Shown piece after piece: positions 14,696 to 63,182 of a stretch of DNA of 64,000 bases; position 1 is the first letter of the stretch; each line of letters begins with the position of its first letter. The stretch is from Harriotta raleighana (lineage: Eukaryota), in assembly GCA_050575255.1 (NCBI GenBank), contig JBNZDD010013491.1, forward strand, positions 62,001 to 126,000. Reading direction: 5' to 3'. Both the position numbers and the translations under genes were made by a program. The notes below the pieces were generated by a model, which was not told the DNA's origin, ran no database searches, and was given only the letters and a program-made list of their open reading frames with translations.

Positions 14696-15672
14696 AAAGT
14701 ACTCTCTTGCTTTCTGCTACATTTTGTAGTCCAACTAATATCAGTTCACATTTATCATGCAGATCCTTGCTACTTGGTCCTTCGACATTCTACAATCATC
14801 ACTCCAGATAACAAGGGAACCAGAAGGTACGTCATGACACTGTTGATCATTCTGGCAAACTGGAAGGGTATTCAGATGAACCTGATCAAAAAGGAATTGT
14901 TTCCTCGCAAAGAAAACTGTTTGTTAAACATCTCAACAACAAATCTATCACTTTGAAAATATTACTGTGCAATCTGTGTGGAATATCATTATAATGAAAG
15001 TGACACATCCTCCAAAAGTTTGAAATTGCTTTTATTATATTACTCAAAAATGTTTAAGCAAAGTTCCAAAAAATTATTATTATATTATTATAAAATGATA
15101 ATTATTCCTGTAGATCACCTGACAGTGTAAAAAGAAACCCGGTTCTGATGTCGATTTGACTTCAACCACTGGCTCAACTCTCAACCCCCACCCACTTTCC
15201 CCCACCCTCGCCNCCCACCCACTTTCCCCTACCCTCGCCTAATAGGGGAATGTTGAAGTTTATTGTAGAGCCCTTACCATCACCACAGCTAAATCTGTAT
15301 NACTGGCTCAACTCTCAACCCCCACCCACTTTCCCCCACCCTCGCCTAATAGGGGAATGTTGAAGTTTATTGTAGAGCCCTTACCATCACCACAGCTAAA
15401 TCTGTATTGATTTGCAATGAATCTTGGACTGTAGAGATATCCATTGATTAACACCACACCGACATTTCTAAACTTTGTTACCACATCCTGTTGATCACAA
15501 AGTACATCAATCTAGAATAAAGAGCAAGGATCAATAGTATCAATATTGTATGCCCGACTAATTCAAATTCTGGTAACACGAATAGAGTTAAAATGATTAC
15601 GTTTGAAATATATTTGTTATCTTTAGTTTCATTGCTTCAAATATCAGGGATTTCAGTTAATTTAGATATTTT

Positions 15673-21858: not shown

Positions 21859-22391
21859 ATGAATGAATGCTGAGCACCACAGCACACTTATTTCATTTAT
21901 GTAACAGGTTTGCTGAAAGCAACTGTGGAATTCCCAATGCAAACTGATGAATTAATTCAAAATGAATGTACGATGATCCTGTGTATATATACAGTATATA
22001 TTTGAAAAGTCATACAAAATGGGCTTTAATCTTATGTTTTAGGAGGAGGTTGTTCACTTCAATTCATAACAATTGTCCTCTTGATATCAAAGCATCTTTA
22101 GTGAGTCAGTGTCCCATATAATATACATAGGTGAACACCTAATATTGCATACATTTGATATAGTGTCGTATCATGTCTTTGAGACATTTCAAAGCGCTTC
22201 ACAGAATATAATATAAAAGGAATTGATAGTATGTTTTCTTCCTGCACATAATTCTAACCAAAATTTAACTATCCATCTACTAACTAAACTGTTCTTCACT
22301 TCGTTTTTTTTTTAATTGGAGGGGAGGGGGGGGTCATATTTTACATTGAAGCATTATATATCATTTCCAGGGCGGTACTTGAAGACGAAGT

Positions 22392-22936
22392 ACGATTTTG
22401 AGCTCAAATAAGCCACAGAAGCTAAGAGCCTAGAGAAAAGATGTGCGGTTCCCCTCTGTGACTATAAGGGAGAGGAGCAATAAATTAAAATAATCTATTT
22501 AGTGGAGTCCTCTAGCTCAGTGGTTAGAGCACACGTCTTGAAATTGAGAGACTTAGGTTTGATTCCAAACCAGCAAGGCGAAACCTTGGCCAACTTTTCT
22601 TACTCTACACGCCTGACAATAATCCCACAACAAAGATTGGTCATTTCAATCCATGACTATTTCCGGGACACTGCTGTGTGCAATTGGCTGCCGCGTTTCG
22701 CCCACACACACACACACACAGAGTCAATTCACGTTACAGTAAATTCTGTGAAGCATTTTGAGACGTCTAGAAGACCGTGAAAAGCGCTATATCAAATGCA
22801 AGGATTACCACAGAGCCAACGCTTTGAGCCGAAACAAACCACAGTAGCCAAAAGTCTGGAGAAAGCTGTACATTTTCCCTCTGTGTCTATTAAAGGGAGA
22901 GGAGCAACACAATAAATGACAATAATCTACTCAGTG
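22392..22936 (+). repeat. Diverged direct repeats of about 115 bp (22392-22504 and 22819-22936) flanking a SINE
   Basis: tttgagc...ccacag...gagaaa...ccctctgtg.cta...gggagaggagcaa...aataatcta...agtg occurs in both copies. Confidence 0.85.
22503..22807 (+). mobile_element. SINE, full length
   Basis: tggagtcctctagctcagtggttagagc head, core with CA expansion, tail. Confidence 0.92.
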
Positions 22937-25539
22937 CAAGGAACGGGTTCTGCAACCTTTGAGATCTCAAACGTTTAGACAAAACACTGTATTTCAAACA
23001 ACGTAAAACAATTAACGCATTGTTCGAATGAAATCACTGCGTTGGTTTATTTATTTACTTATACATTTATGTCGTGTCCCCCCCCCCCCCCCCCCCCCCA
23101 CCACCACCAGCCCGACAAAAATAAAAGGAAAATAAGATGAGAAATTAAACAGAATGTCTTGACTTTATTTTAAGAACAAAATATCGATTTTGCATCCACA
23201 CAATCGCCGGACATCTGTGAATAAAACTGCCGCATATTTTCCTGTTGCAATAGATTGAAAAATAAACATTGCTTGACCCGCACATACCTTGCTCTGGGGT
23301 GGGGGGAGGAGGAGAGAGGAGTGAGAGGGTGGAGAGTCTGGATGCGAGGCGAATCGTGAGTTATTTTCATTGACAAACTGTTTAAGACATTTAGCGGATT
23401 CTCAGTACAGTGATAAGATGCCTTCACACACACCAAACCAACAGAAAGAAAGAGACGGAGGGAGGGAGAGAGAGGGTGACACATAAATATACATGACCAA
23501 TTCATAATAATCTCACTCATAATTATAATAATACACAATAACATCATTCGATTCATGGTTTGAACCGATTGTGGGAATAAAATGCGTTGATCTTTCCCAT
23601 CCAGCGATGGATGCAACTTACAACGAATGGGTGTCCAACCGTTTCCACATTGAGTTATCCCGTTTACTTATTTATTTGTATGTTCAATGTTCCCTGAGGC
23701 GTGTTCAGTAGTTTCTGCAAACATTTTTTTTGAGGGGGGGGCTAAATTGAAGTTAGCTGAGGCTCACTTTATTTAGAAAGTTCATCCAAGCCACCAACTG
23801 AGACTGAGAAATCCTTATATATCCCTTTGCTCTGTTACTTTGACTTACCTTATTACTCCCGGGTTTCAATATTGAGCAGACTTCTTGCCGCTAAAATATA
23901 AGGACAGGTCGTTAATACGATCACCATTCAATCAATAATAATCAGAAAGAAACCTTGCATTTTAAATGCTGAAGCGTCCCATCAGGTTTCTCAGCCCGTC
24001 TCAAAGCGCTTAACAGAATATAATGGGAATGTGGATTGACTGGATATCTTGGGGGAGAGGTACCCCAACAGCTGAATATTCAACCCTTTCGGGGTATATT
24101 ATTTCTACGTGAATAATCCATCTGGGAAACCGCATCTTTGACTCCAATATGGAAATGAATCTCAACTGGAGATGTCTCAGAAATTTCAGGGCAGATTGTT
24201 GTTCTGCTTAACCTGAACTGTCGTTGTCTTGTTTAACACTTAGGGGTGGGTGGGTGGGAGTGGGGGTGAGGGGGTGGTGGCTGTAATATTACACTCGGTG
24301 AATTGGAGACACAGTAGTTGTCAGTCCACGTGTTATCTCTTTTCAGCATCTTTTTACTACAAAAGCTCAGTGCTACCTTTCCAGAAACAACAGCTACTGA
24401 CTGTTAACTCGGTCCAAATGCAAACATTTATTTTCTCTCTCAAAGAATCGCTAGGAAACCAACCCACATTTCTTGAAAAACGAAGTCGAAGGTCACTGAG
24501 ATTGAACTGTGAACCGACAGTGTGGATTAGAGCAACGTGTTTGTCGTTCAGCACAGACAAATATTGGCCAATGTAATGTCGCCACATCGCCGACAGGGGA
24601 CACTATTTGAGCAGCTATCATTCCTCGTTGTGTTTTCCCCCCTTGTTAATAGAGATTTGCTTTTCCCCCCTTCTGTGTTAACGTGACTGTTAAACAAATA
24701 AAGATATAAATAAGATGGGAGTTGGACATACAGGTAACATGTAATATCCCCCCCCCCCCCCCCCCCCCCCCCCCANCCCCAAAAAAGGAAGAAAATTAAA
24801 ATAAACCAGCAGGAACGATTCCTCACAAAGAAAAAAAACATTTAATTCAAGAGGAAGAGATTTTTGTTTAATTTTTTTTGGATAATTGATTAAAATTAGA
24901 AGGACAAACTCTCTGAACAGGCTCATTCATATTTCTGAAAATATTTCCCCATCAAACATTACCAATCAAATAATTTATTATTATTATTACTAGCCACAAT
25001 ATACTTACCACAATAGTCCTTGTGTTTACTATTCCACTCGTACCTGCTTATTTTCTCTCTCTAATCTACATGTGGAGTGAGGATCTTAAAGATAGTACTA
25101 AGAGGGGAGATGGGGAAAGCAATAATAATCCTTGCATTGGATCCAGTAACTCCTCGCCTCGTCGAAAAGATCTTCACTGGATTTTACTGTGAAATGCAAT
25201 GAGAAGTGTTTGCAGGACAACGGTTGACGTGACTTTCATCCTCTGTTACTTGTTGTTGGTGCAAATTTATCCTTACAAACTGATCGGGCATTTATTTAAG
25301 ACTACGTTTACCATTTCGAAGGCATTATTTCAATTTAAAAACACATACACTAACTGCTGTTTGGTTAGCTTAACTGTGTGTTATATGGATATTATGGGCA
25401 TTGGATATTGAGACGTCTAGAAAACGTGAAAAGAGCTATATCAAATGCAAGGATTATTATAATATTATTATTGGATATTTTGAGATGGAGGAGAGTGTTC
25501 GAATGATTTGCAAATAAACAGTTTGACATATACGAGATT

Positions 25540-25625
25540 TCAGCTGTACAGCTATGTTCAGCTGTATAGCTGTTTAGCTATGTTCAGCTGTATAGCTGTT
25601 TAGCTATGTTTAGCTGTATAGCTGA
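25540..25625. repeat. Minisatellite built of tagctgt/ttcagctgta units
   Basis: Directly visible tandem repeats. Confidence 0.85.
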
Positions 25626-38443: not shown

Positions 38444-39355
38444 TTAAATGTCTATCCTTGTGTGCAAGGCGCTGTGTTTGCTGTCGTGGTCCCAATATGA
38501 ACAGTGCATCATGGAAAGATCTGCGGGCTGCCGGGCACAAGAGAACTGGAGCCCGGCTCCGTTGCCGGATGATTGCGGTGGAGCCGGGCTGAGCTGCTGA
38601 CCGTGGGGGTGATGGTGATGGGCCATGCCGTTGTAGGAGTTCACCATGCTGGGCAGGGCCATGCTCTGAACTCGGGCGTAAGGGCTGTACGAAGCGTGTC
38701 CAGTGAGTCCCTTCACGCTGACGGGGCTGACGTTGCCGCTGCTCATTTGGCAGGAGGGGTAGGGCATGGGGGCCGGCGGCTGGGCCAGCGACCACGAACT
38801 GTTCATGAACGTCGACTGCAAGTACTTGGGTGGTCCCAGGTAGCCGTAGCTGTCACTGGCGAATATGGTGGTCTTGCCGTGTTGGAAGTGGCTGGGAGGG
38901 GGCCTGAAAGGTCGCTTCATCCGCCTCCTCCTCCGGTAGTTGCCCTTCTCGAACATGTCTTCGCAAGCCGGGTCTAGGGTCCAGTAGTTGCCCTTCCTCT
39001 CCCCCCCGCCTTCCCTGGGCACTTTGATGAAACACTCGTTCAGGCTCAGGTTGTGCCGGATGCTGTTCTGCCAGCCTTTCTTGTTCTTCTCGTAGAAGGG
39101 GAACTTGGTGATGATGTACTGGTAGATCCCCGAGAGGGTCAGCCTTTTCTCGGGGCTCTCTCTGATAGCCATCGCGATCAGGGCCACATAGGAATAGGGC
39201 GGTTTCTGTGAAGGGTCGGGTTTCTCCCCAGCCTTGTCCGGGGGGGAGTCGCTCTTGTCTCGGTCGATTTCTCTGGAGCCGGCTGTGGGGCTGCTGGGGT
39301 TGTTGTCAGTTATCAAAACCATGGTCTCATCTTCGGGTTGTTGGTAAGAGGCCAT
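38444..39355 (-). CDS. FOXL2: Forkhead box protein L2, single exon, 303 aa
   Basis: Translation [10 protein letters not shown]...[103 protein letters not shown]...[22 protein letters not shown] has the FOXL2-specific forkhead domain (about 38910-39205) and C-terminus. First ATG at 39355 is in strong Kozak context (GGGATGG). The ORF track's start at 39373 is a TTG. Confidence 0.98.
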
Positions 39356-39960
39356 CCCGGCGCTGAAACCCAAGTCCTTTTTCCTCGCTCCCTCTCGTTA
39401 CTCCCCCCACACCCCCCGCCCCCTCCCCAAGTGCAGTTACCGGTGTCTTTAATAAAGAAAATAACTTGCAGCTATTCGCAGCTCTGTCTTGCTCTTCAGT
39501 GCAAAGGGGCCCCACTTTCTGTCTTTCGCTTTTGTTGTTCTTGTTGTTGTTGCGTTACATTACCCAACAACGGGGCTGTCTGTCTGTCTGTCTGTGTGTC
39601 TGTCTGGCTGTGTGTCTGGACTCGTTGCAAAGTCTGGTTCAAGTTCGTGTTCAGTGCAAAGGCAATAAATAGTAGGGTTAGGGCGTCTGACTGATTGACT
39701 GACTGTCTGTGTGTGTGTGTGTATGTGTGCTCCCGAGGTTGAGCAGACCAGTTTCTGTGTCTCTATCACTGCACGCAGTGCCCTTTTCGTCCTCTTGCAA
39801 ATGGGAGAGAAAAATGTGTCGTCCCTATTCGCGAATCTCTCGGCCTATGTGGTGGCCAGGCTGGGTTAGTCCTCTCATTGGAGCTCAGCCACTCACATCC
39901 GCTCTTGCTTCGTTCCCTCCCCCCCCCGTCTTCGCCACTCCCATCAGCTGCCAAACCCAA
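39356..39960 (-). promoter_or_regulatory. FOXL2 5' leader and proximal promoter
   Basis: CpG-rich; CCAAT on the minus strand at 39877-39881; G-rich boxes around 39915-39930; the minus strand has only one ATG in about 520 nt upstream of the CDS. The TSS is not determinable from sequence. Confidence 0.6.
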
Positions 39961-40137
39961 ACCCCACCTCGAGTCCACTCGGGTCGAGTTGGAACAGAAT
40001 TCAGTGGAGGGGAGAAAAAACACCGTCAAAATCTTTTGAATACCCGTTCAAAATAATTTTTTTTTTTTAAAAAGACGCATCATTTTCTTTTGGAGCTTCA
40101 GTATTCATTTGATCATCATCATGATCATCATCATGAT

Positions 40138-40345
40138 CATAATACTTGCATTTGATGGAGCGCTTTTCGCATCTTCGCGACGTCTCAAAGCGCTTCCAGG
40201 AATGTGCTCTTGAAGTGAATTGATCATATCTGGGCGAAACGCAGCAGCCGGTTGCGCACAGCATTGTCCCCACAAACAGCGGTGGATTGAAGTGTCCAAA
40301 TTATTCTTGTTGATTTTTTTATTCCATTGAGGGATTATTATCAGG
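40138..40345 (-). mobile_element. SINE 3' two-thirds just upstream of the FOXL2 promoter
   Basis: Core and tail; tail repeat has drifted to ATG/ATC-type repeats at 40110-40140. Confidence 0.88.
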
Positions 40346-42686
40346 AATAAGATTACAACTTTTCCCCATGAATTGTTCTACATTTACCTTTTTTGGGGGG
40401 GTTGGGGGGCTCTATAAACACACAATGCTTTGTGAACTGGAAGGAAAGGAGAGAAAACGTGGCACCCAGGAGAGACTAGAGTTTGGAGGACTAAATGAAA
40501 TAGAGCAAATTGAATTGTCACCATTTTATTGTAAGACTCCTCACACCCACACCCCCACCCACCCACCCACATGATATTGGAAAGGTGCACACATTTACAA
40601 TGCAATACTGTTCAACGCTGAGCAACGTGTTATTTTCTGATGTAGAGTTGGGCAGCGTCAGATTAAATTAAAATAAAAAGATTTTTTTTAGAGACAGAGA
40701 GAGGAATGCAGATTCAGAGGAACTTTGTTCTCAATATCTGAAGAAGATAACGAGAGTTTTCAGACCCGTGAAAAAGAACCAGCTAATCCGGTTTCTTTTC
40801 ATTGATCTAGATCAGATCACATACCAGTTTGAACCTGACCCCGGTGTATAAATCATAGCTCAGTCACTAACAGGTGGGTCTGACTGACTCGGTTCGAGTA
40901 GTAGATTGTAAAGAGATATCTATCAGTGTCTGAAACAGATTGATCAGCAACACACACACACACACGTCTTTAGTGTTTTGCAGTTTTCTACCAAACGAAC
41001 CCTGGAGGCGCTGTGATTTATTTTTATTTATTTATTTATTGTTATTATTATTTTTTGGGGGGCGAGGGGTTGGTCGACCACCCATATCGACATGTTGCCT
41101 GATTCTATGAGGTATTTTCAGCGACTGATAGTGTTAACTGGAATCTTTTTCCCTGCCGCTTTGAAACATAAACTTGTCTTCCAACTCCGGTGAGTAGCAG
41201 TGAGTGGTTCAATTCTTTGCCAATTCTACTGTAGAAACACAACCCCCCCCTCACACCCCCCCCCACATAACACCCCCCCCCCCCGCCCCCATGGCTCACA
41301 GCAGTTTCATATGAACATCTTCTGTTGGTTCGCCTAACTTTTATCGCAATTATCCTTCCTGTTCCTGCCTATACCTGTCTGGCGATCAATCGTTTAACAG
41401 CAATAAGCACTGACTGTTGCGAATATCGTTATAACCAGTTTATTGAGTTCCCTGAGCAATGGGAAGAGAATAGAGAAAGAGAGAGACATATATACACACA
41501 CACACACACACAGACAGACACATATACACACACAGAGACACGCAGAGAGACACCCTTAAAAGACTGAAAGGCACGAAGCAGTAAATAAATACATTTCACA
41601 GTTAATCATATTTCACCAGTCGACTGAAATGTCCCTGTGTGAGCCGGGCAGGACAGTAAGACGGAAATAATCAAGAGTCGAAGTGTCCCATCTGCAGCCT
41701 AGACAGGCTGAAGGGTATCAATTCCAGTTGCCTTCTGCACTTCAATAGGTTAGTGTTTACGGTGCTGTTTGTTAACACATTTGGTGGCTGAAGAAGACAA
41801 CCCCCCCACCCCCCAAACCCCCCACCCCGCCCACCTCAGTTATGCGGCGACCTGTTCAATCCTGCAATCGATCAGCCTCTCTCTGCGGTGAGAGGTCGAT
41901 AACTTTTCTTTTCAAATAAAACAGAAGTAAAGAAACGGCTGTATGTCAGCAAAGCTACTTCGAATGAACCTGCAGTACGTGGAAGCTGAGGTTGAGACTT
42001 CATTCATCGTCAATGGAGGAGGAAACTCAACGACTGTGTTAAACTGTCTATAGCGCTTTCTATACATTGCTCGCTGCGCTATTGCTTAGTCCTGTCATCC
42101 ACTGTCCAAATCCTGCTGATAATGTACCCATCAGTACATCCCTCCTTTCCCCGTTGAAAGACATGAACAGTTCAGTTCACCAACGGCAGTTCAGACACAC
42201 GGTTAGTTTGCTATCTATGGGCAGATGCACAGTGAAGACAAGTCCAATAAAACTCACACATTTACCGCAGAACAGCCGGAATTTGGGATTCTTATCATTG
42301 GAAAAGAATCGTGTCACGGAAGATTAAACGCTTTCTCATATTAGTTGAATACCGAAATCCAAATATTCCCCAATACCAATCAGTCTATGTGCATATGTAT
42401 ATATATCTATATATTTTCCAAATTGTATTTAGCAGTGTGCTCAANATATATCTATATATTTTACAAATTGTATTTAGCAGTGTGCTCAAATGTCCTCGCC
42501 GTGAATATGTACACGTTACAGTCAGTCGGTGATAATTTGCAACAGATTGGGCGTTTGAGAGGCTTTTAGTTGTTTTTCAGTGGGTTACTGTGTCTTTGCG
42601 AGACAAGAGGAAAGATCTGCACAGCAAGAATGTGTGAACCGTGTGTCACAACACAGAGAGGTCTGGGGGGGGGGGGGGGGGGGGAG

Positions 42687-42783
42687 NNNNNNNNNNNNNN
42701 NNNNNNNNNNNNNNNNNNNNNNNNNNNNNNNNNNNNNNNNNNNNNNNNNNNNNNNNNNNNNNNNNNNNNNNNNNNNNNNNNNN
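42687..42783. other. Assembly gap within a poly-G tract
   Basis: Run of N. Confidence 1.
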
Positions 42784-43007
42784 GGGGGTGCAGAATACAG
42801 CATCACAGCAGAGCACACATCAGCACGGGTTAACTGCAAAAATAAATAACACACACACACACACACACATATCACAATCGCTTTGACAAGCCAACTGCAA
42901 GGCCACGGATTTTCAACTTGATTAACAGTGTCACAGATTCAATTCAGCGGACAGCGGTGATGTTGGTGTGGAGTAGGTCAGCCACTTACTGCACCCACCT
43001 GTTATTA

Positions 43008-43070
43008 TAAGCGCTTTGAGACGTCCAGGAGACATGAAAAGCCTTATAGCAAATGCAGGGATTATGAATT
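43008..43070 (+). mobile_element. SINE tail fragment
   Basis: aagcgctttgagacgtccaggagacatgaaaagcc...aaatgcagggattat. Confidence 0.75.
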
Positions 43071-45841
43071 ACTATTAGCATTATGATATCACTTTCTTTT
43101 TGAGCAGTCGAGCCCTGAAATGGCAATTTGACGTGTTTTAACGTGTGATTCTTGTTGCTTTTTGTGGTTGTTGCAATACACGCTCTCCTGAACAGGAGAA
43201 TTAACTGCTCGCACTGGATTCCTTCGCTTGAACTACACGCGTGACAGAATATACAGTGAAATGCGAACACCCTGTGCTCTAACTGCATGTAATATTGGAG
43301 TTCCATGAGAGAGAGAGAGAGAAGGGGGGGAAGAGACAAATAGTGGGAGAGAGAGAGAGAGAGAGAGAGGATGGGAGAGAATACAAATGGTTATTATATA
43401 ATTTAACCGATTTTAAACAAACTGCTTGGTTCATCTCATTATTGATTATGGCGTCTGCCTTTTCATCCAACAAGTCAATCAATGTATTGATCAATCAAAG
43501 ATCAATTGTTTTTCTTTGACTGTTTATCAGACGGCTGTGTTCCTGAATGCACAGCTAGAATATGCGAATGTATTCCATAGGTGGGAGGGATATGGATGAT
43601 AAATTAACATGGATACTGATTGATTTATATGCTGAGATTTTGGATGGCCTTGCAAGGAGAGGTAGAGAACAGGATTTCAAATCTGACCGAGTCTATGCTT
43701 AATGAAAAAAACACTGAACAAAAATGATTGCAAACAAAAAATTGTCACCAGTTTCGCCCATCGAGTTTCTAAATCGGACAGAAAAGGTTTTGATGAATCC
43801 GAATGGGAAATAAACACGCACAATCTCTTTTTTTTGGAAGGTGGAGGGTGGGGGGGGGGGTGGGGTTGTTATTTGCAGCAAGATGGGATTATATGGAACA
43901 CAGGAATTATTCTATCTGTTGAGCAAATGTTACATTTGCCACTTGTGAATGGGATCCCAGAAAGACCCATAGAGAAAAGAAATGGGGACAAGTCTTTTTT
44001 TTCCAGATCGCTGCTCCTTGCAAAGCAATCTGCAGGAGCCAACGTAAAGCCTAATCCAATTGAAGACATATACATGCCAGAGGGAAGAACTTTTGAAGAG
44101 CACATTTATTTTAAGTGACTTGAAATTCATTGTTGGTTTCAATAAATGTCATTGAAACACAGACATAAAGAACACACACACATACACACACACACACACA
44201 CACGAGAGTGTGTGACACCCCAAGGCATTGGTGACACGTTTAACATCTTTTACTTTCCATTTTCCAACAGTGATCCCACTCTGCTGTTCACCTCATGGGA
44301 ATCACGTTCCCTTTAATTCTATGCACGGGTTTCTAGGTAAAAAAAATTAAAACACATCAATATAATCATGGAGATTACATTTAAGAAATTAGAGCTTTAA
44401 GATTCGAATACAGGGTGGGCAAAAGAAAAATCATGAACGCATTACAATATTTAATCTAAAAGAAATGATGATTCTTTTTAGAAAACAAAGACAAATTATA
44501 ATGAATCGTCACTCCTCTCAACAGCAGCAACAACACAATCCCAAACCTTTCCAAGCACATTCACTTCGGGTTGCACCAGAAAAAAATACACACCATACAA
44601 TCTGCTGTGTGAAACTCATCTTCTTTATACATCAAACTGCCCCTACTTGTGCGTGAAATGCTATGAATGAAGCAGCGAGGCTAGGCTGCAAATAGATCAT
44701 CTAAGGCGGTTGAAACACCACTCACTCACACACAATCTCTCTCTCACTCACTCACTCTCTCTCTCTCACACGATTTTTGCAATGAGCTCACTGCCCTTTT
44801 CCCAGAAGTTGATCGCTCGTTTAGTTTTGCTTTCTAATCTGTACTTTAAGCAGTAATCCTGTGTGTGCTTTTTTCTCTCTCTCTCCCCCCACCCCCACAC
44901 ACACTCACCCTCCCTCCTGCCTTTAAAGGCATTTATTGCACCTATGAGGCTCGACTTTGATTTGCAGATTAAACCCATCTATCCTTATTCTGAACTAGAT
45001 CACATTGATAAGAAGCCGTGCTTTCGTTTTTTTGCAGGTAACTAACTAGTGGCGTGGGTGTCAATTGTGTTTTTTTTTAACATTAAATGCTTTTGTAGTG
45101 TTATTGTGTTAGTAAAACACAGTCTGTTGAAAGCGAAGGAGAAAGCATCAGGCGTTGGGTTGGTGAGTACACGCGGTGAAAGGTCTGAAACAATTTGAGA
45201 GGGAATGGAGAGAGGGAGCGAGGGGGAGGGAGGGGGAGGGAGGGAGTGAGGGCGGGGAGGGGGGGGTGGGAGAAGAAGCAAAAAAAACACGCTTAATAAC
45301 CATCCTGTATTTTGATTTTAAAAAAACACAATCCGCTGCTGGAATCCGTACTAAAATACATCAACAAATAAACCCCGATTGGAGGGAGTCACTCACACAC
45401 GTGTAGCAGCAACAAGTCATTAAATTTGTACATCTCTAAACAACTAGAATTCGGATTCATTGAAAGCCAAGTGTTTAAAGTGGGGATATTGCTGTTAATT
45501 GTTTTTTTGAGTTGGGGGAGGTGGTGGTGGGAGGATGTGGAGGTTTTTTTTAATGTCTGGGTCTGGGTTGTTTATCATTGCTCTGGTTTCATGCTGGAGT
45601 TACAGTAGTTATGAGTAAGGTACCTTATAACTGTCCGCCGATAACACAACAGCTGCTCTTTTGAATTTTGGTCTTGGAAACTGGACTTGCGAGTGACACG
45701 GAGAGAGTTGGGAAAGTTACAATATACGACTGAGAGAGAGAGAGAAAGAGACGAAGTTATTATACGTGGAGGTTTTTACTGCGAACACAATTCTAACTTT
45801 CCCCTTGATTCGATTCGAGTCGCAATGTCTGTGTCTGTCTG

Positions 45842-45873
<32 letters not shown>

Positions 45874-45932
45874 GCAAAATAACCAAGACTCAGCCATCAG
45901 ACATTCTCATNATCGATTCGAGTCGCAATGTC

Positions 45933-45976
<44 letters not shown>

Positions 45977-46767
45977 GCAAAATAACCAAGACTCAGCCAT
46001 CAGACATTCTCATTGGAACTATCTGCAAGACTGATTCACCGAAACTTGCTCCTCAACCCAATGCACAGAGTGTACTTCGGTGTGGGAGTTTGAATGTGGA
46101 TGAGAGGATGTGAAATGTTTGAGGAGTTGGTTTCGTGCTCTCGCAGTTTAACTCTCGCCTTCCTCCCCAAATGCCAAAACGTGGATTAAATGTCACAATA
46201 TTGTGCCCCAGTTTGACTGGGGATTAAAATGTTAACAGAAACTGCTCAGTTGCATTCCATTCCCTGTCTGGTCAACAATCTCCTTGGTCAAAAACCCTCC
46301 AAAGCCGTGGTCATTCAGCCCAAGTGCAAGTAGTTTATTGAAATAAAAAAATATATGAACATATCTGAATGAAAGCGCAGTTTCCTTTGGTTCCAAATGA
46401 AACGAAGGTGATCCCAGAATTGTGTGCTCGGATATACGTTCCCCAGAACACTTGCAGAAATGATCACTGATCAGCTCATCTAACTGTATTGCTTCACAAT
46501 ACAATATAAAGATTGTTTTCGCCCTCCTCCCCACCCCCCCCCCCACCGCCTTGCTTTCCCCAAAGTGCAAACAAATTGACTTCAAATCGCAGTTGAATGG
46601 ATTGCGGAACATAACTGTACGCAAGGTCACTGAAGTTTCAAGCTTCAGAGTGTTTCTTTTCCAAATCATATTTTTTTTAAATGGGTTGGAACCATTTTTA
46701 AAACATAAAAACAGAAGCGACTGATAGACGATGCTTTTATTAAAGGCAGGTCGTGCTCTCGTAGTTA

Positions 46768-46830
46768 TCACCTATCACTCTCACCGATTACCTATCACTC
46801 TCATCGATTACCCATCTCCCTCACCGATTC
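46768..46830. repeat. 20-bp tandem repeat, three copies
   Basis: acctatcactctcaccgatt repeated with variants. Confidence 0.85.
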
Positions 46831-49800
46831 AACAATCGATCATTAAACGATGGGAACATACACACACACACACACAAACACACACATAATAAATACGTAT
46901 TTAAAAATCTGTTCTCCCAACTTTCACTTGTCCTTGACGACCCATTGTGTCACAGATGGTGAGAAATACCAATAGCGAACTGAGTAAATTAGCATTCAGC
47001 GATGTTTGCTTTGAACAGACAAACTATTTGGGCAAACTAACAAGGGACAATTAAGAACTGTTAGTGAGCTCTGTTTGTTGACTGTGGTTGTTTTGTAGCC
47101 GTGTCTGGGTAACCCTAAACCAAATGAAGAAGGGAAAAATAAATAAACGCAATGACATTTATTCAGCCTCTGCAGTGGAATCCAATAGAGCAAACGCCTA
47201 AACCACTGTACTGTCTCTCCGAACAATATATTTAAATACGTCTACAAGCATTCCGGGAAAATATACTGTCTTTCCGGTTTTGCAAACACAAACACTTTCT
47301 GTGATGCTTATGTGTTGACACGTAAAATAGACCTTAGATTAAACTGGTTCTTTCAGGGATGTGTCCACCATATCCTTTCAGAGTTTGCAAGATACTCTTT
47401 TGGCTTATGGGGACATTGTAGGGAAACGACTGAATAAAAAGAAGACCAAACGCCCAATGCCGTTGTTAAATGGTGCAGTGAGTGTGTGTGAGTGTGTTTA
47501 ACTAAAGCTACATAAAGTAAAACTCGCTTAAACAATTGGCAATTGGATAGTTTAAGGTTTCCACTCTTGTTAATTTGAATCCCCACTATATATACTGCAT
47601 CTGTTTGTGATAATTCCACATAAACGCTGTCTGTCATTCTCCTTATCTTAATGTCATACTCAAAAACCATGGGGAAATAGCATCGCAGCAATGCGTTATA
47701 TTAGTTTGAAATAATGCTATCTAATAATGCCTTTGCAACCACTTATTCTTGAAGCAAAATCCTCCTCGTCTATATACCATGCCTTTATAAGAATTCAAAC
47801 AAAACCGAGACTTTTGCTTTGCTCAAATGCAACAAGGAACATTCCAGTGATCGAAAATTAGCTGCAAATTCCAACTGGGGGAAAGAAAATCGTGTATATT
47901 TGACTGACCACATGTGAAACCTGAAAGACACCAGCAACCAGCTAAGCTACATTTGCATTCACTGAAGTGCAATTCGATCGCACAAACAAGCAGACGTGAG
48001 CACGGTTGTGAACTGTGTTGGGTGACTTAAATTTAGACTATTAGCGATGAATTACTTGCAACGAAGTACGATCTGATAACAAATACACACATTTATAGTT
48101 GCCTAAATCCAGTCATTGTATAGCTGTGTGGATGTTCTTGATATATATATATATAAAAAATGGCTGGTATGTCAGTACACAAGGAAATGATGTAGTTACA
48201 TTAGAATCCAGGGTATAGCCAGGCGGTAGTAATGTGTTAAATACAACTTCTTATTCCTTACATGTGGCTCTTATTTCCCGAGATTCTTGAACTGTTTAAT
48301 AGGTTTACAGGGGGGAGGGTGGGGGGGTGGGGAGAGGAACAAAAAGGATGTTACTCCAAGGCGCACTTCTACAGAAACAAGGATAGAAAAGACACTGGGA
48401 CGAGTTAGAGAGGGCGATTCACTTTAACTCAATTTAATTGTTGTTTGCAAATCCAGGCAGATTATTTTCTTAACTCACCTAAAGTATTTTTACGTTGCTA
48501 AATGGGAATTCCCTGCACATTCCCCCCGAACGACTGAGGATGTTCATTGACAGCCTTAACGTCACCTTTTCCATTCTCTCCCTCCCTCCCCCACACACCT
48601 CACCCCAGGTTCCTCCAACCAGGGGAATCTGTCGTTTATAGAGATTTGAGCTAATCTTGAACGCGATGAACAGAGGCAAATAAAGTCGGTGTATTATGAA
48701 CTGACCGTGTTTTGAGGGTTAATTCCAAGGAAAATAAGTGCAAGTGATATGGATGTGTGTTAGGAAAAAAAGGGCTAACTAGGGCCCAGCGGGGTATCTA
48801 CTGGACAGGGTAGGAGCAGAACTAACTTTAAGCTCCTGAGCTCCATTTAGCAAACACCAATCAATACAATGGGACTTTCTGCATTAAACAGTGGGTGAAA
48901 CATTGAAACTCTCTCCCACACAGTCCTGTGTGCAATGAAACAGTCGCTGCTTTTCAATGTGTGTTGGTGTTTGGCCTCATACCCTAAGTCTATTTCACTT
49001 TCAGACAGCGGTGGGAGTGCTGGGCAGGTCGTTTGAAAAGAGACATCGTTTCTCTCCAACCACAACGTTATGTTCCAATCCAGTTACACCACATCTATAT
49101 GAAAGAAAAAAAGAGAGCAATGCTTCAGAACAGGTATCTCAGTCATTCCCAGTGTAACAAGTCTTCGCCATTTCAAGGAGAACCTTAGGCAGGTTATGAG
49201 ATTATGAGTCGCACAATATTCTCATTTTAACTACAATGATAAGCCAATGATTTATCTCCAAACATTTGCATATTCTGGTATAAATTCTGGTATGATTTTG
49301 ATATCAAGTCTTATTCAGATTAATGCTTTTTTTTAATTAAAAAAATCAACTCAGACGAAACATCCTGGCAGGATTGCAGTGTGGATGCCCACATCCCCTC
49401 CTATATTGCAGGCTGATATATTATTCCAACCACATTCGATCACAAGACATCAAGTTTAAATAGTTCATGTGCTGGGAAACGTGCCACCGAAATCAGGATA
49501 AAATAAAAGAGAATATGTGATTATTCCTGAAAGTGAAAATCACACAAGTTGGGCAGTGAATGCTAAAATAGTTGGACGAGTTTCTTTCGAAATTTGGCAT
49601 CCAACTGTGAGTATTTCACAGAATCTCTACATTGAATATTTAAGATCGTTTGGAAATTAATATTGTAACCAATCTGATTTGAGGGATGACGTTGTGTAAT
49701 TATAAATAATCATATTTCTGTAATATTTGGGGTCCTGGTCATTGAGGAGATGGAAAGCAGCAACGTTTCGAGGTCAACTGTCAATAGTTTCTAATAGAAT

Positions 49801-52129
49801 CCCATTTACAAGCTACTCCTGTTATAATAATAAATAATAATATTAATATTAACATTATAAAGAAGTCCCAAAGCAGTAGACTTATTAATGTTGAAATAAA
49901 ACAGGATCACCTTGTTACAAATGGAAATCTCTCTTTCTCTCTCTCTCTATATATATGTTTACTATATATGTGTATATATATATATATATGAATATTCAGT
50001 AAATGTGATTTAGAGGCTGTTCTGAATGTTAACAAAATGTTATGTGGAGTAAAACGAATCAATTGTAGAAGCTATTGTTATTTTTAAATGAATTTTAAGC
50101 AAAGGTATTCATAAAATGATGGTTATTTAGTGGTCCCATCCAAGGGACTGCAATTATCATAGTGAGAGGAATTGGTTCAGCAAAATTAACTCTGGAGGAA
50201 AAGACATGAATAAGATAAATGTATGTCAGGTACCGGTTCATGAGAACATTTGGGGATAATCCATACAAATCGACTGTATTCCTAGCTTGCAATTGCTTGT
50301 TCCTTCACAAAAAAAAGCAGGTTCTGCGATAATCAACGTGCGAGCAATAATCATTAATAATAAAAATAGGGTCATTATTGGTTTATTTAATATTAATAAT
50401 GATTAGTTTCTACAACTGGAGTGCAGCTGTACAATTTTTACAGATAAGCACTGTATCAATTCCTGCCTTAATCAGAGAGTATTACAGATTCCTAGTTGGC
50501 AATGTAGAAGGAGGATAAACAACATGGTTTGCGGTTGGGGCTGGTAACTCTGGTCTTTTTGATAGAAGAGAAGCAGGTTCTTTAAACACAGCTCACTGGG
50601 GAGAGGCAGAGACTTAAAGAAAACAGTCTCCTTCTTTACAGTCTACTCACACGCACAAAATCTTTCCCCAGTAATGGGAGAGAAATTCTCCAGTGATATT
50701 TACAACACTTACCTTGTCATATAGCTGCCCCCACCCCACCTCACCCCCACACACATACACGCACACATATCATCACATAGTAACTCACAGTAATTCAGTA
50801 ACTTTCAAGAAAACAATTCATATAAGATTTTATGTCCAATTGCGGTTACTAATAAAACGATTGCATAAGAGATGCCCACACTGCTAAATAATAATAATTA
50901 TTTATGAATTTATTATAATCCTATTGACAACATCTATCTACAAGAAATATAGCATTTAAAGCCACATGCATCCATGATCAGTTGATCTCACAATTGTCTC
51001 ACGTTTCTTTTCCTACTAAAATGAAACGTTGTTCAGATTAGCGACTCCTAGCATTTTAGTTTGGAATGTCACATTCTACTCACATGTTCTGAAAAAATGT
51101 TTCTGGCTGAATGGGCAAGTGCGAAAAATGCTTATTTTTGTTCCCAGAAAGATTTCAAATAAATAAAGTCGGGCTTGGAAACCCCTGTATCCCTTTCTGC
51201 TCGTTAGAAACAGTTCAGAGGAGGCAATGCAAGAGGCGTGAATAGATGACATCAGTTTGGAATTTGTGAAGAGAAAATACTATCTAAGACTGAAAAACAT
51301 ATTTCACTCTTTCAGCTAACGTCGAAATGTGAAAACGGCGTGTGCAAGCTATCGAATTTTAAAAAACAATTTCACATCAGTTTTAAATTACTAGAAAACG
51401 TTCTTCAAATAAAAAAAAGGAAGCAACACTGGAAGACATCTGGTTGCTGATAGAGGGGAAGGAGCCTGAAAAGTGTAAAAGTTCATCTATAGGACACAAT
51501 CTTCCACTTTGAGTTACAAACCACAAACAATATGCCATTGATGCACCAGCTCGTTACATAATTATAAACTATAGCATCTGTCTCATAAAAGGGATGATCG
51601 CTAACAATAATAAAATACTAATATAAACCTTTAGGTGACATCTATTTTTCCAGACGCCTGCATTCTCTGTTAAACCTCTTCGGATACACCGTAATCACCC
51701 CCTTCAATATTTTCCAATGTGTTTAAATGTTTGCACAGAAATAACTTTGCTGCTTCCCATCCACATTGAGGAAGACTGAACACACTGCAGAAATGCAGTT
51801 ATTTTTAGTTACACAACTTCCCCTAACAGGTTAGTCACAAGAGGTACCTATTATATATAGGCCAATTGAAAGTTTAATATAGAGAAAGAGAAAACAAACA
51901 AAACAAAAGGAACTCACATCTTTTTTCAGCCTTTGTATTGAGTTTTCTCTTCACATATCTCAATTGATGTAATCTGCTCATGCCTCTGATTTGTTTTCTT
52001 GGAATATCTCTACCGAGTAGAAGGAATACAAGATTTCTGAGTCTGACTTTATTTAATTGAAATCTTCCTGGGAATAAAAGTCAACATTTCCACACTTGCA
52101 TTCACATTGTATTTGGTTACCAACTGCTC

Positions 52130-60612: not shown

Positions 60613-62261
60613 TGAAGTGATAAGTGGTTTTCTTTACTTCAGTATAAACCATCCTCATATTGTTCTGAGAATAATGGCTTTGAAAGTTATAATCTGTCAA
60701 ATATTATATTATCCATACTTATGTATAATAGCAATCACACAACTCTACATTTATATAATATTCATCAGTTTGGGTTCTCTGATGCTACGGTCAGCAGAAT
60801 ATCTGAAACCTTTCAGAGTAAATAAAATAAGTTTCCTGTAACCTCATGGTGTGGTTATTGTAGTAGCATTGTTTTTGGATTAGTTGTGGCCAGAATTGAT
60901 AAACAATACAAAAGAGAAGTAAACATATGCTTCTAAAATATTCATGTGGGGGTGCAAGATATTAATGTGCTACTGGCAGACAGTGCCAGTAGACACATAG
61001 AAACCTGAAACGAGTCTCTAGGTCTGCAGTAGTATTGTATAATTTTTTTCTGTGATATATTGGCAATAAGTAGTCTTATGGAATTCATCAATAAAGAAAT
61101 GGGCTATTGTACTAATTGTATTTGCAAACAGCAAACACAATGCTATATGACTCACACAGCATGAAATTGTAAAATGACTAACTACTGCACTCATTTTGGA
61201 TGGATGAATGATTGCGTTAAACTATCACCAGGAAGTGTGGCTATTCATTTACTACTGGTGCCAAAATGCCAGCAGCCTTTTGAAAGCATGCCAAAATGGT
61301 AAGGATTAGGTTCACATTAGGTTAAATTCATCCATTTAACTCCACATTACACTTGATTGCCAAATACTCTGCTGTCAATATAATTTTGTTGTTTGTGAAA
61401 TTTCTCTCTTTTTATATATAATATTCTAAATATATATATATACATACTATATATATATATATGCATAAATAAAAATCTACAGGGAAATTTCCAAAGGTTC
61501 TTTGACCTATAAATCTTGGGTGTGACATTAAACCTTTAAGTAATTACTTNGCATAAATAAAAATCTCCAGGGAAATTTCCAAAGGTGCTTTGACCTATAA
61601 ATCTTGGGTGTGACATTAAACCTTTAAGTAATTACTTCTTGTGAAAGTATGCAACTAACAATGGGATGAATGGTATCCAAAGTTGATTTGCCATCACTGG
61701 ATTCAAAACAAGTAACACATATAATATTTTATTTATAGATTTCTTCCACAGTTGGTCTATTCTCACTTATGAAAGGCAACTAGTATAATACCACCAAGTT
61801 CTCCAAATAACTAAGTTACTTACAAAACCCAAATAGAGGACAATAATACGCTTGGTGGAAAATATCTTGTCATTTCATTTTCCTCTTATTGTAATTTTAT
61901 ATTGCAGTATCATACGTTTTGGGAGAGCGGTGGAGGGAAAGAAGGGGATAAACCTATCATTCATTAGCCGTATACAAGATCACTTCCTTGCTATCAAAGG
62001 TAATCATTTTGATATTGTTGTCTTCAAAATCCTTATTTCCCAGTCGGTATTTTTTTCTGCTCTTGACCTCTTTATTGTTGAAAGGCATCCAGCACTTAAA
62101 GGTATATTCAAAGTTTGTTTAAATACTACAATGACATATGTTGACATTCAACGTGAAATTGGACTTGAGTGTTCGTATAAAGAAAGTGCAATGCGAGTAA
62201 TCTTCCTTATGTTTATTTCAATAATCCAGTCAAGCACAAGCCACCATATGATTTTTAAAAT

Positions 62262-62360
62262 TTATTTATTTATATATTATATTTATATAGCGCCTTTCAC
62301 GTCAGGAGGACGTCCCAAGGCGCTGTACAGTCAAGTGGGGGGAGGGGTCACAAGGTGGGG
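62262..62360 (-). mobile_element. Short L2 3' tail (repeated at about 62600-62700 by an assembly join)
   Basis: tttatatagcgcctttcacgtcaggaggacgtcccaaggcgctgtacag. Confidence 0.75.
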
Positions 62361-63182
62361 AAAGATAATCATCAAACAACTAAATTCTAAGTTATATTGC
62401 AGAGAATTGGGTCTATTCTCTAAGAGTTTCCAAATTCCTCCATCCATTTTATTCCAAGCAGAAAATTTGAATTTGAATGGAAACATGCTTTTTTGACTGA
62501 TTTACCATCAATTCAAATCTCCCAAACTTCTTTAATTTGGGTGGAAATATGTANCATTTCAATAATCCAGTCAAGCACAAGCCACCATATGATTTTTAAT
62601 TTTTATTTATTTATATATTATATTTATATAGCGCCTTTCACGTCAGGAGGACGTCCCAAGGCGCTGTACAGTCAAGTGGGGGGAGAGGTCACAAGGTGGG
62701 GAAAGATAATCATCAAACAACTAAATTCAAAGTTATATTGCAGAGAATTGGGTCTATTCTCTAAGAGTTTCCAAATTCCTCCATCCATTTTATGCCAAGC
62801 AGAAAATTTGAATTTGAATGGAAACATGCTTTTTTGACTGATTTACCATCAATTCAAATCTCCCAAACTTCTTTAATTTGGGTGGAAATACGTATGCCCT
62901 ATGTCAAAAGCACATTTAGACCTGAACTATTTTGGGTGTAAATCCTACCAAATTTAGACTCAACATGATCTTCTACAATAACAGTGCAATTCAGATCTCC
63001 TCGAGTAACTCGGGCAAAATGGAACTATTTCCAGCAGGATTTCTTAAGGATGAAAACACAAATACATTACTGTACATTGATTTGGGATTTGTTGTACGGG
63101 GATCCAAGTTGGAGCAGACTTCCAGCGTAATTGATGTAATGTGCATAAAATACTTCCTCATGTAAGCAATCTCCACTCAGAT

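Follow-up and report, generated by a model that had tools for sequence, protein, structure and literature searches.

Can a single genome assembly record, through the decay of its CpG dinucleotides, which of its DNA stays poorly methylated in the germline? The question is raised by FOXL2, a gene of ovary development, in the cartilaginous fish Harriotta raleighana, and here we follow it in a window of 64,000 nucleotides (contig JBNZDD010013491.1, positions 62,001 to 126,000; C13491 below), which is part of a larger contig in an assembly of 1.1 Gb. FOXL2 lies on the minus strand at 38,444–39,355 of the window as one uninterrupted open reading frame (ORF) of 303 amino acids, matching the solved FOXL2 DNA-binding domain (PDB 7VOU) at 99 of 102 residues, and its best homologues are FOXL2 of sawshark (85%) and skate (82%). 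A sequence-only reading had proposed a CpG-rich domain at about 22.5–51.4 kb around this gene, in which copies of a short interspersed nuclear element (SINE) lose CpG more slowly than elsewhere. That observation is confirmed, and the roughly 30 kb around FOXL2 are very probably a DNA methylation valley, poorly methylated in the germline, as judged from mutational traces.

The domain itself is real and well supported. With interspersed and tandem repeats masked, the CpG observed/expected ratio (o/e) is 0.63 at 22.5–51.4 kb, against 0.29 in the left and 0.26 in the right flank, and 0.34 and 0.30 in a further 200 kb of the contig, and since repeats are masked here, the excess is not a product of the repeats themselves. 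The raw ratio likewise climbs from about 0.3 outside to mostly 0.5–0.85 between 22 and 50 kb, so the sliding profile is far from flat. A two-state hidden Markov model (HMM) finds a single segment in 264 kb of the contig (21,971–51,691), and a two-changepoint fit places the domain at 21,971–51,733 (edge support 21,869–23,002 and 50,344–52,126), with a log-likelihood gain of 55–57, where 200 shuffles reached no more than 11. It extends 16 kb downstream and 12 kb upstream of FOXL2, covering a developmental transcription-factor gene and reaching far past its promoter, and interspersed repeats make up 9% of it compared to 21% outside. The domain is AT-rich, with a unique-sequence GC of 0.397 (0.36–0.38 elsewhere), and as the earlier reading expected it is mostly missed by GC-based island callers: the classical thresholds (GC of at least 50–55%, o/e of at least 0.6–0.65) are reached only in the coding region and a few spots of 200–400 bp. 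Gardiner-Garden criteria cover 10.4% and Takai-Jones criteria 3.6% of 22.5–51.4 kb, and the only Takai-Jones island in the window (38,239–39,288) coincides with the FOXL2 coding region.

CpG decay was read from a SINE with a tRNA head, about 316 nt long, whose ancestral sequence carried 14 CpGs. Ten copies inside the domain have kept 54 CpGs, with 17 decayed to TpG, CpA or TpA and 10 otherwise changed, whereas the 120 copies outside, in 264 kb, have kept 313 with 532 decayed and 131 otherwise changed, giving an odds ratio (OR) of 5.4 for retention and a copy-level permutation p of 0.0002 (116 scorable copies, 8 of them inside). Expressed per SINE site, the CpG transition rate is 0.155 inside and 0.507 outside, about 3.3-fold lower, and this low deamination rate holds outside CpG islands too, which make up 4–10% of the domain. 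Non-CpG divergence is 0.117 inside and 0.116 outside, so that the central copies are not younger overall, and when each inside copy is set against its five nearest outside copies matched in sequence and age, nine out of nine retain more CpG (53 of 72 sites kept, against 99 of 313). Equal divergence together with these age-matched neighbours leads us to reject younger central copies as the explanation, and the matched comparison likewise rejects a SINE subfamily effect.

Individual copies in the domain carry the same record. They include a tRNA-headed copy at 22,500–22,807 (plus strand; 9 CpGs kept and 5 decayed, non-CpG divergence 0.109), a young copy at 27,243–27,553 (minus; 12 and 2, 0.038), a 3′ half at 28,925–29,114 (plus; 7 and 1, 0.104), a copy at 29,704–30,050 (plus; 10 and 3, 0.104), a tail at 35,377–35,452 (plus; 3 and 1, 0.163), and a 3′ part at 40,134–40,348 (minus; 6 and 2, 0.159) located roughly 0.8 kb upstream of the start codon of FOXL2. 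On the nine 3′ CpGs counted by hand in the sequence-only reading, we recover the same retention for the central copies at 27.2 kb (8/9), 28.9 kb (7/8), 29.7 kb (7/9) and 40.1 kb (6/9), and for the flanking copies at 8.4 kb (3/9), 9.5 kb (3/9), 14.4 kb (2/9), 21.6 kb (3/9), 52.8 kb (1/7) and 58.5 kb (0/9); the copy at 11.8 kb is indeed low, with an exact count of 1/8 rather than 1/9. Its statement that most flanking copies retain far less also stands, yet the contrast is softer than presented, given unlisted copies at 1.4 kb (5/9), 3.8 kb (5/9), 11.5 kb (4/8) and 15.7 kb (4/9). The copy it singled out as an exception, at 7,007–7,308 on the minus strand, does keep 7/9 of these sites and 10 of all 14 CpGs, and is among 4 of 120 long outside copies that keep at least 70%. 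To the right of the domain, at 62,000–69,000 in window coordinates, several SINE copies keep many CpGs (7/9, 8/13 and 8/12) with divergence of 0.04–0.07; either they are younger, or this is another patch with weak protection.

Similar domains are found well beyond FOXL2. The HMM was applied to 12 further Fox and homeobox loci, and each gene had a high-CpG segment over it or next to it; nine of these form bounded plateaus of 7.6–37.8 kb with a masked o/e of 0.60–0.75 against 0.24–0.33. With FOXL2 there are 10 bounded domains, among which its own ranks second in size. A feature specific to FOXL2 is thus rejected, since like plateaus occur at most developmental transcription-factor loci examined, and FOXL2 is not special among them. 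The examined parts of a Hox cluster show a raw o/e of 0.57–0.81 at 36–45% GC with low flanks, and 3 of 20 random 10 kb windows hold long high-CpG segments: one with a gene that we take to be EGR2-like, another in gene-dense surroundings with broadly high CpG, and a third unexplained. When the FOXL2 contig and two loci rich in GC are left out, SINE copies in high-CpG flanks (69) have kept 247 and lost 152 CpGs, and those in low-CpG flanks (342) have kept 724 and lost 1619; divergence is 0.130 and 0.126, respectively. Moreover, among the 516 of 737 copies with at least four scorable sites and enough flank, decay correlates with the o/e of the flank (rho −0.39), whereas the age of a copy shows no such correlation (rho −0.01). 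The control loci on C13468, C13675 and C13544, which have broad, GC-richer, high-CpG surroundings, were excluded from the inside/outside tests of matched SINEs and of substitution spectra, and over all remaining loci the matched comparison gave 56 wins, 8 losses and 1 tie for inside copies.

Methylcytosine deaminates to thymine, and fewer methylcytosines at the domain would mean less deamination to TpG and CpA; inserted SINEs presumably adopt the methylation state of their surroundings. In elephant shark, SINEs are normally hypermethylated (PMC5437953), and when SINEs of matched age lose CpG more slowly, this therefore suggests that the germline methylates them little. Every sequence-level prediction of the valley reading held, from the domain and its AT-richness to the lower SINE decay at equal age and the small island coverage. 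A cross-species comparison leans the same way, with 0 CpG transitions and 9 shared CpGs inside (352 bp) against 4 and 4 outside (534 bp), which is weak (p = 0.03), as it comes from 35 + 35 among the differences listed (40 of 622 and 40 of 48), one related organism and 886 bp in total, with contig orthology assumed. By analogy with mouse and frog work, H3K27me3 cover and TET-dependent protection may apply here, with upkeep probably by Polycomb and TET proteins; the mechanism as such is not new.

The protection is apparently partial, as CpG transitions in the domain remain 3.1–3.6 times as frequent as non-CpG C>T changes there. Several observations weigh against the valley reading. Only 10–11 SINE copies lie inside the domain, and the step at its edges is not clean, as 13 copies located 10–20 kb beyond them keep 57% of their CpG at a mean divergence of 0.093. 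Elsewhere in the genome, 3 of the 12 control loci and one random window have high o/e over at least 50 kb in GC-richer DNA, so that o/e alone is unspecific, and SINEs in high-CpG flanks at C13638 (14 kept, 14 lost) and C13691 (25 and 30) have lost about half. Lastly, non-CpG substitutions shift inside as well, with changes from A/T to G/C (weak to strong, W>S) raised about 1.6-fold and S>W transitions at 0.63, and part of the CpG retention may therefore not come from methylation, possibly being due to GC-biased gene conversion.

This shift raises the alternative that locally high recombination, through GC-biased gene conversion, preserves CpG and C/G in general with methylation no lower than elsewhere. 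At strict non-CpG sites, 73 inside copies compared to 491 outside copies show more W>S change (OR 1.62 for transitions, 1.65 for transversions), fewer S>W transitions (OR 0.63) and unchanged W<>W, with an equilibrium GC (GC*) of 0.51 inside against 0.33 outside (B about 0.71–0.75; for FOXL2 by itself, permutation p = 0.006); the inside excess of GC* recurs in each of four age classes, and unique GC is raised at 9 of 10 bounded loci. However, S>W transversions show no reduction (OR 1.13), the drop in non-CpG C>T is seen at CpA and CpC and not clearly at CpT, unique GC inside is only 0.40, and a PRDM9-like locus with KRAB and PR/SET matches exists in the genome. Gene conversion alone (B = 0.71) would predict 50% CpG decay, whereas the observed figure is 27% (20/75; binomial p = 3e-5 if sites are taken as independent). 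The non-CpG shift hints at a process that partly fits GC-biased gene conversion and explains only part of the CpG retention; as the whole explanation it is improbable, and it would more probably be a consequence of hypomethylation that adds to the retention.

CpG could also stay in place through purifying selection on regulatory sequence that contains it, or because the SINEs inside are younger or of other subfamilies. The depletion of repeats noted above (9% against 21%) suggests constraint on insertions, and the 27.2 kb copy is young. Yet SINE non-CpG divergence is not lowered inside, and matched neighbours lose far more CpG, at FOXL2 as at the other loci, so that this explanation is already disfavoured and very unlikely. 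Slightly less remote, and still improbable, is a composite of several short unmethylated elements (a PIK3CB promoter, the FOXL2 promoter and enhancers) averaged over time rather than one valley. It gains from dips of o/e to 0.35–0.38 at 28, 36 and 50 kb and from the left neighbour, where a PIK3CB-like ATG exon on the minus strand at about −18.4 kb relative to the window is followed by no CpG-rich kilobase before 22 kb. Against this, 23 of 28 masked one-kb bins at 23–51 kb reach at least 0.5 or come within 0.05 of it, while those outside are mostly at 0.15–0.4, the HMM gives a single segment, the MRPS22 promoter makes a mere 2 kb bump, and SINEs at least 5 kb within the domain edges keep 80% of their CpG. 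Between the ATG exon and 22 kb every kilobase has 20 CpG or fewer, whereas 22,300–23,700 has 31 CpG/kb and is a candidate PIK3CB promoter and first exon on the minus strand; the region upstream of MRPS22 has 26 CpG/kb. Minus-strand donor-like sites at 23,288 and 23,849 are weak evidence, as the pattern occurs 10 times over 59 kb, these two included. The left few kilobases of the domain are thus probably a PIK3CB promoter merged with the valley. FOXL2 is flanked by an exon encoding a PI3K p85-binding domain at −20.6 kb and by MRPS22 exons at 193–199 kb from the window start; we take the p85-binding and ATG exons to be PIK3CB, and presume the known gene order at FOXL2 likewise.

A germline methylation valley at FOXL2 agrees with what is known of bony vertebrates. 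The earlier reading held that developmental transcription-factor genes sit in valleys, and Foxl2 itself is a published case: supplementary tables place it among the valley genes of all 21 mouse methylomes, those of sperm and oocyte among them, and it also appears in the human-mouse-zebrafish list of orthologous valley genes (Li et al., 2018; PMC5806489). Such valleys or canyons are large, lie over developmental transcription factors, take in non-island sequence, show low deamination outside islands too, and in mouse cells are probably maintained by Polycomb via TET proteins (PMC5806489). The Harriotta domain shares these traits of extent, position and deamination; it differs in being deduced from mutational traces in a cartilaginous fish rather than from a methylome, and in its AT-rich DNA (40% GC). 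Broad non-methylated islands likewise cover transcription-factor genes widely and, in zebrafish, with high CpG o/e and GC near background, escape island callers (Long et al., 2013; PMC3583005), but these were described in bony vertebrates. Hyperconserved CpG domains, of which 146 of 190 overlap valleys (as cited in PMC5806489), are also defined by a low CpG substitution rate, though in human, whereas the reporter here is a set of SINE copies within one genome. No report of a valley in the FOXL2 area of a cartilaginous fish was found in the searched literature, of which coverage is partial, most subscription journals lying outside it. The present result would extend the reach of this vertebrate feature, and of the known FOXL2 valley, to cartilaginous fish, and shows that an abundant SINE can serve as a fossil record of methylation in the germline when a methylome is lacking.

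The non-CpG shift in turn gives a lead, open to testing, to the sites of recombination in this lineage. In mammals, GC-biased gene conversion is known at hypomethylated regions, and PRDM9-independent recombination there also raises non-CpG equilibrium GC (PMC11161765, PMC4350167); those are kilobase-scale hotspots, whereas the signal here is weak, fits only partly and spreads over 10–40 kb. The PRDM9-like gene lies at C13043:19,520–27,744, where PR/SET exons follow a KRAB match on one strand, 5–8 kb downstream of it, and a genome search gave no SSXRD match, which does not prove its absence. This arrangement resembles elephant shark PRDM9, which was called partial in one paper and complete in a later one (PMC5519329, PMC8892340). 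It is conceivable, if rather doubtful at present, that the valleys of developmental genes are older than the divergence of cartilaginous from bony fish, can be mapped by SINE CpG decay from one assembly, and in this fish are recombination-warm, drawing GC-biased gene conversion over tens of kilobases despite a KRAB-bearing PRDM9-like gene. If true, the link between hypomethylation and default hotspots would extend to the oldest branch of jawed vertebrates.

Two regions elsewhere in the genome touch on these subjects. A random window at C13729:2.50–2.51 Mb has a masked o/e of 0.56 and CpG-retaining SINEs with no recognisable gene, and is possibly part of another valley. At C13468:458–531 kb, the layout of the FOXL2 locus recurs: a FOXL2 paralogue (58% identity; presumably foxl3-like) has another PI3K p85-binding exon 43 kb away. 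The broad surroundings are GC-richer, with high CpG over at least 60 kb, and SINEs there keep most CpGs.

Within the window, tRNA calls by ARAGORN and Rfam at 1,419–1,488, 7,241–7,296 and 11,711–11,784 are SINE heads, not independent tRNA genes; these three tRNA-like heads are the only Rfam matches and none lies in the domain, by which a structured RNA is rejected as its cause. Tandem duplications of two nearly perfect copies occur at 9,386–9,508, 10,337–10,439, 15,214–15,407, 27,670–27,745, 30,304–30,415, 31,418–32,018, 32,171–32,694, 42,401–42,491, 45,810–46,013, 61,462–61,637 and 62,215–62,894; the majority surround a single N, and they look like assembly joints, not biology. Inside the domain, a long degenerate CA/CT-rich tandem array at 32,150–32,874 gives rise to spurious His/Thr-rich ORFs.

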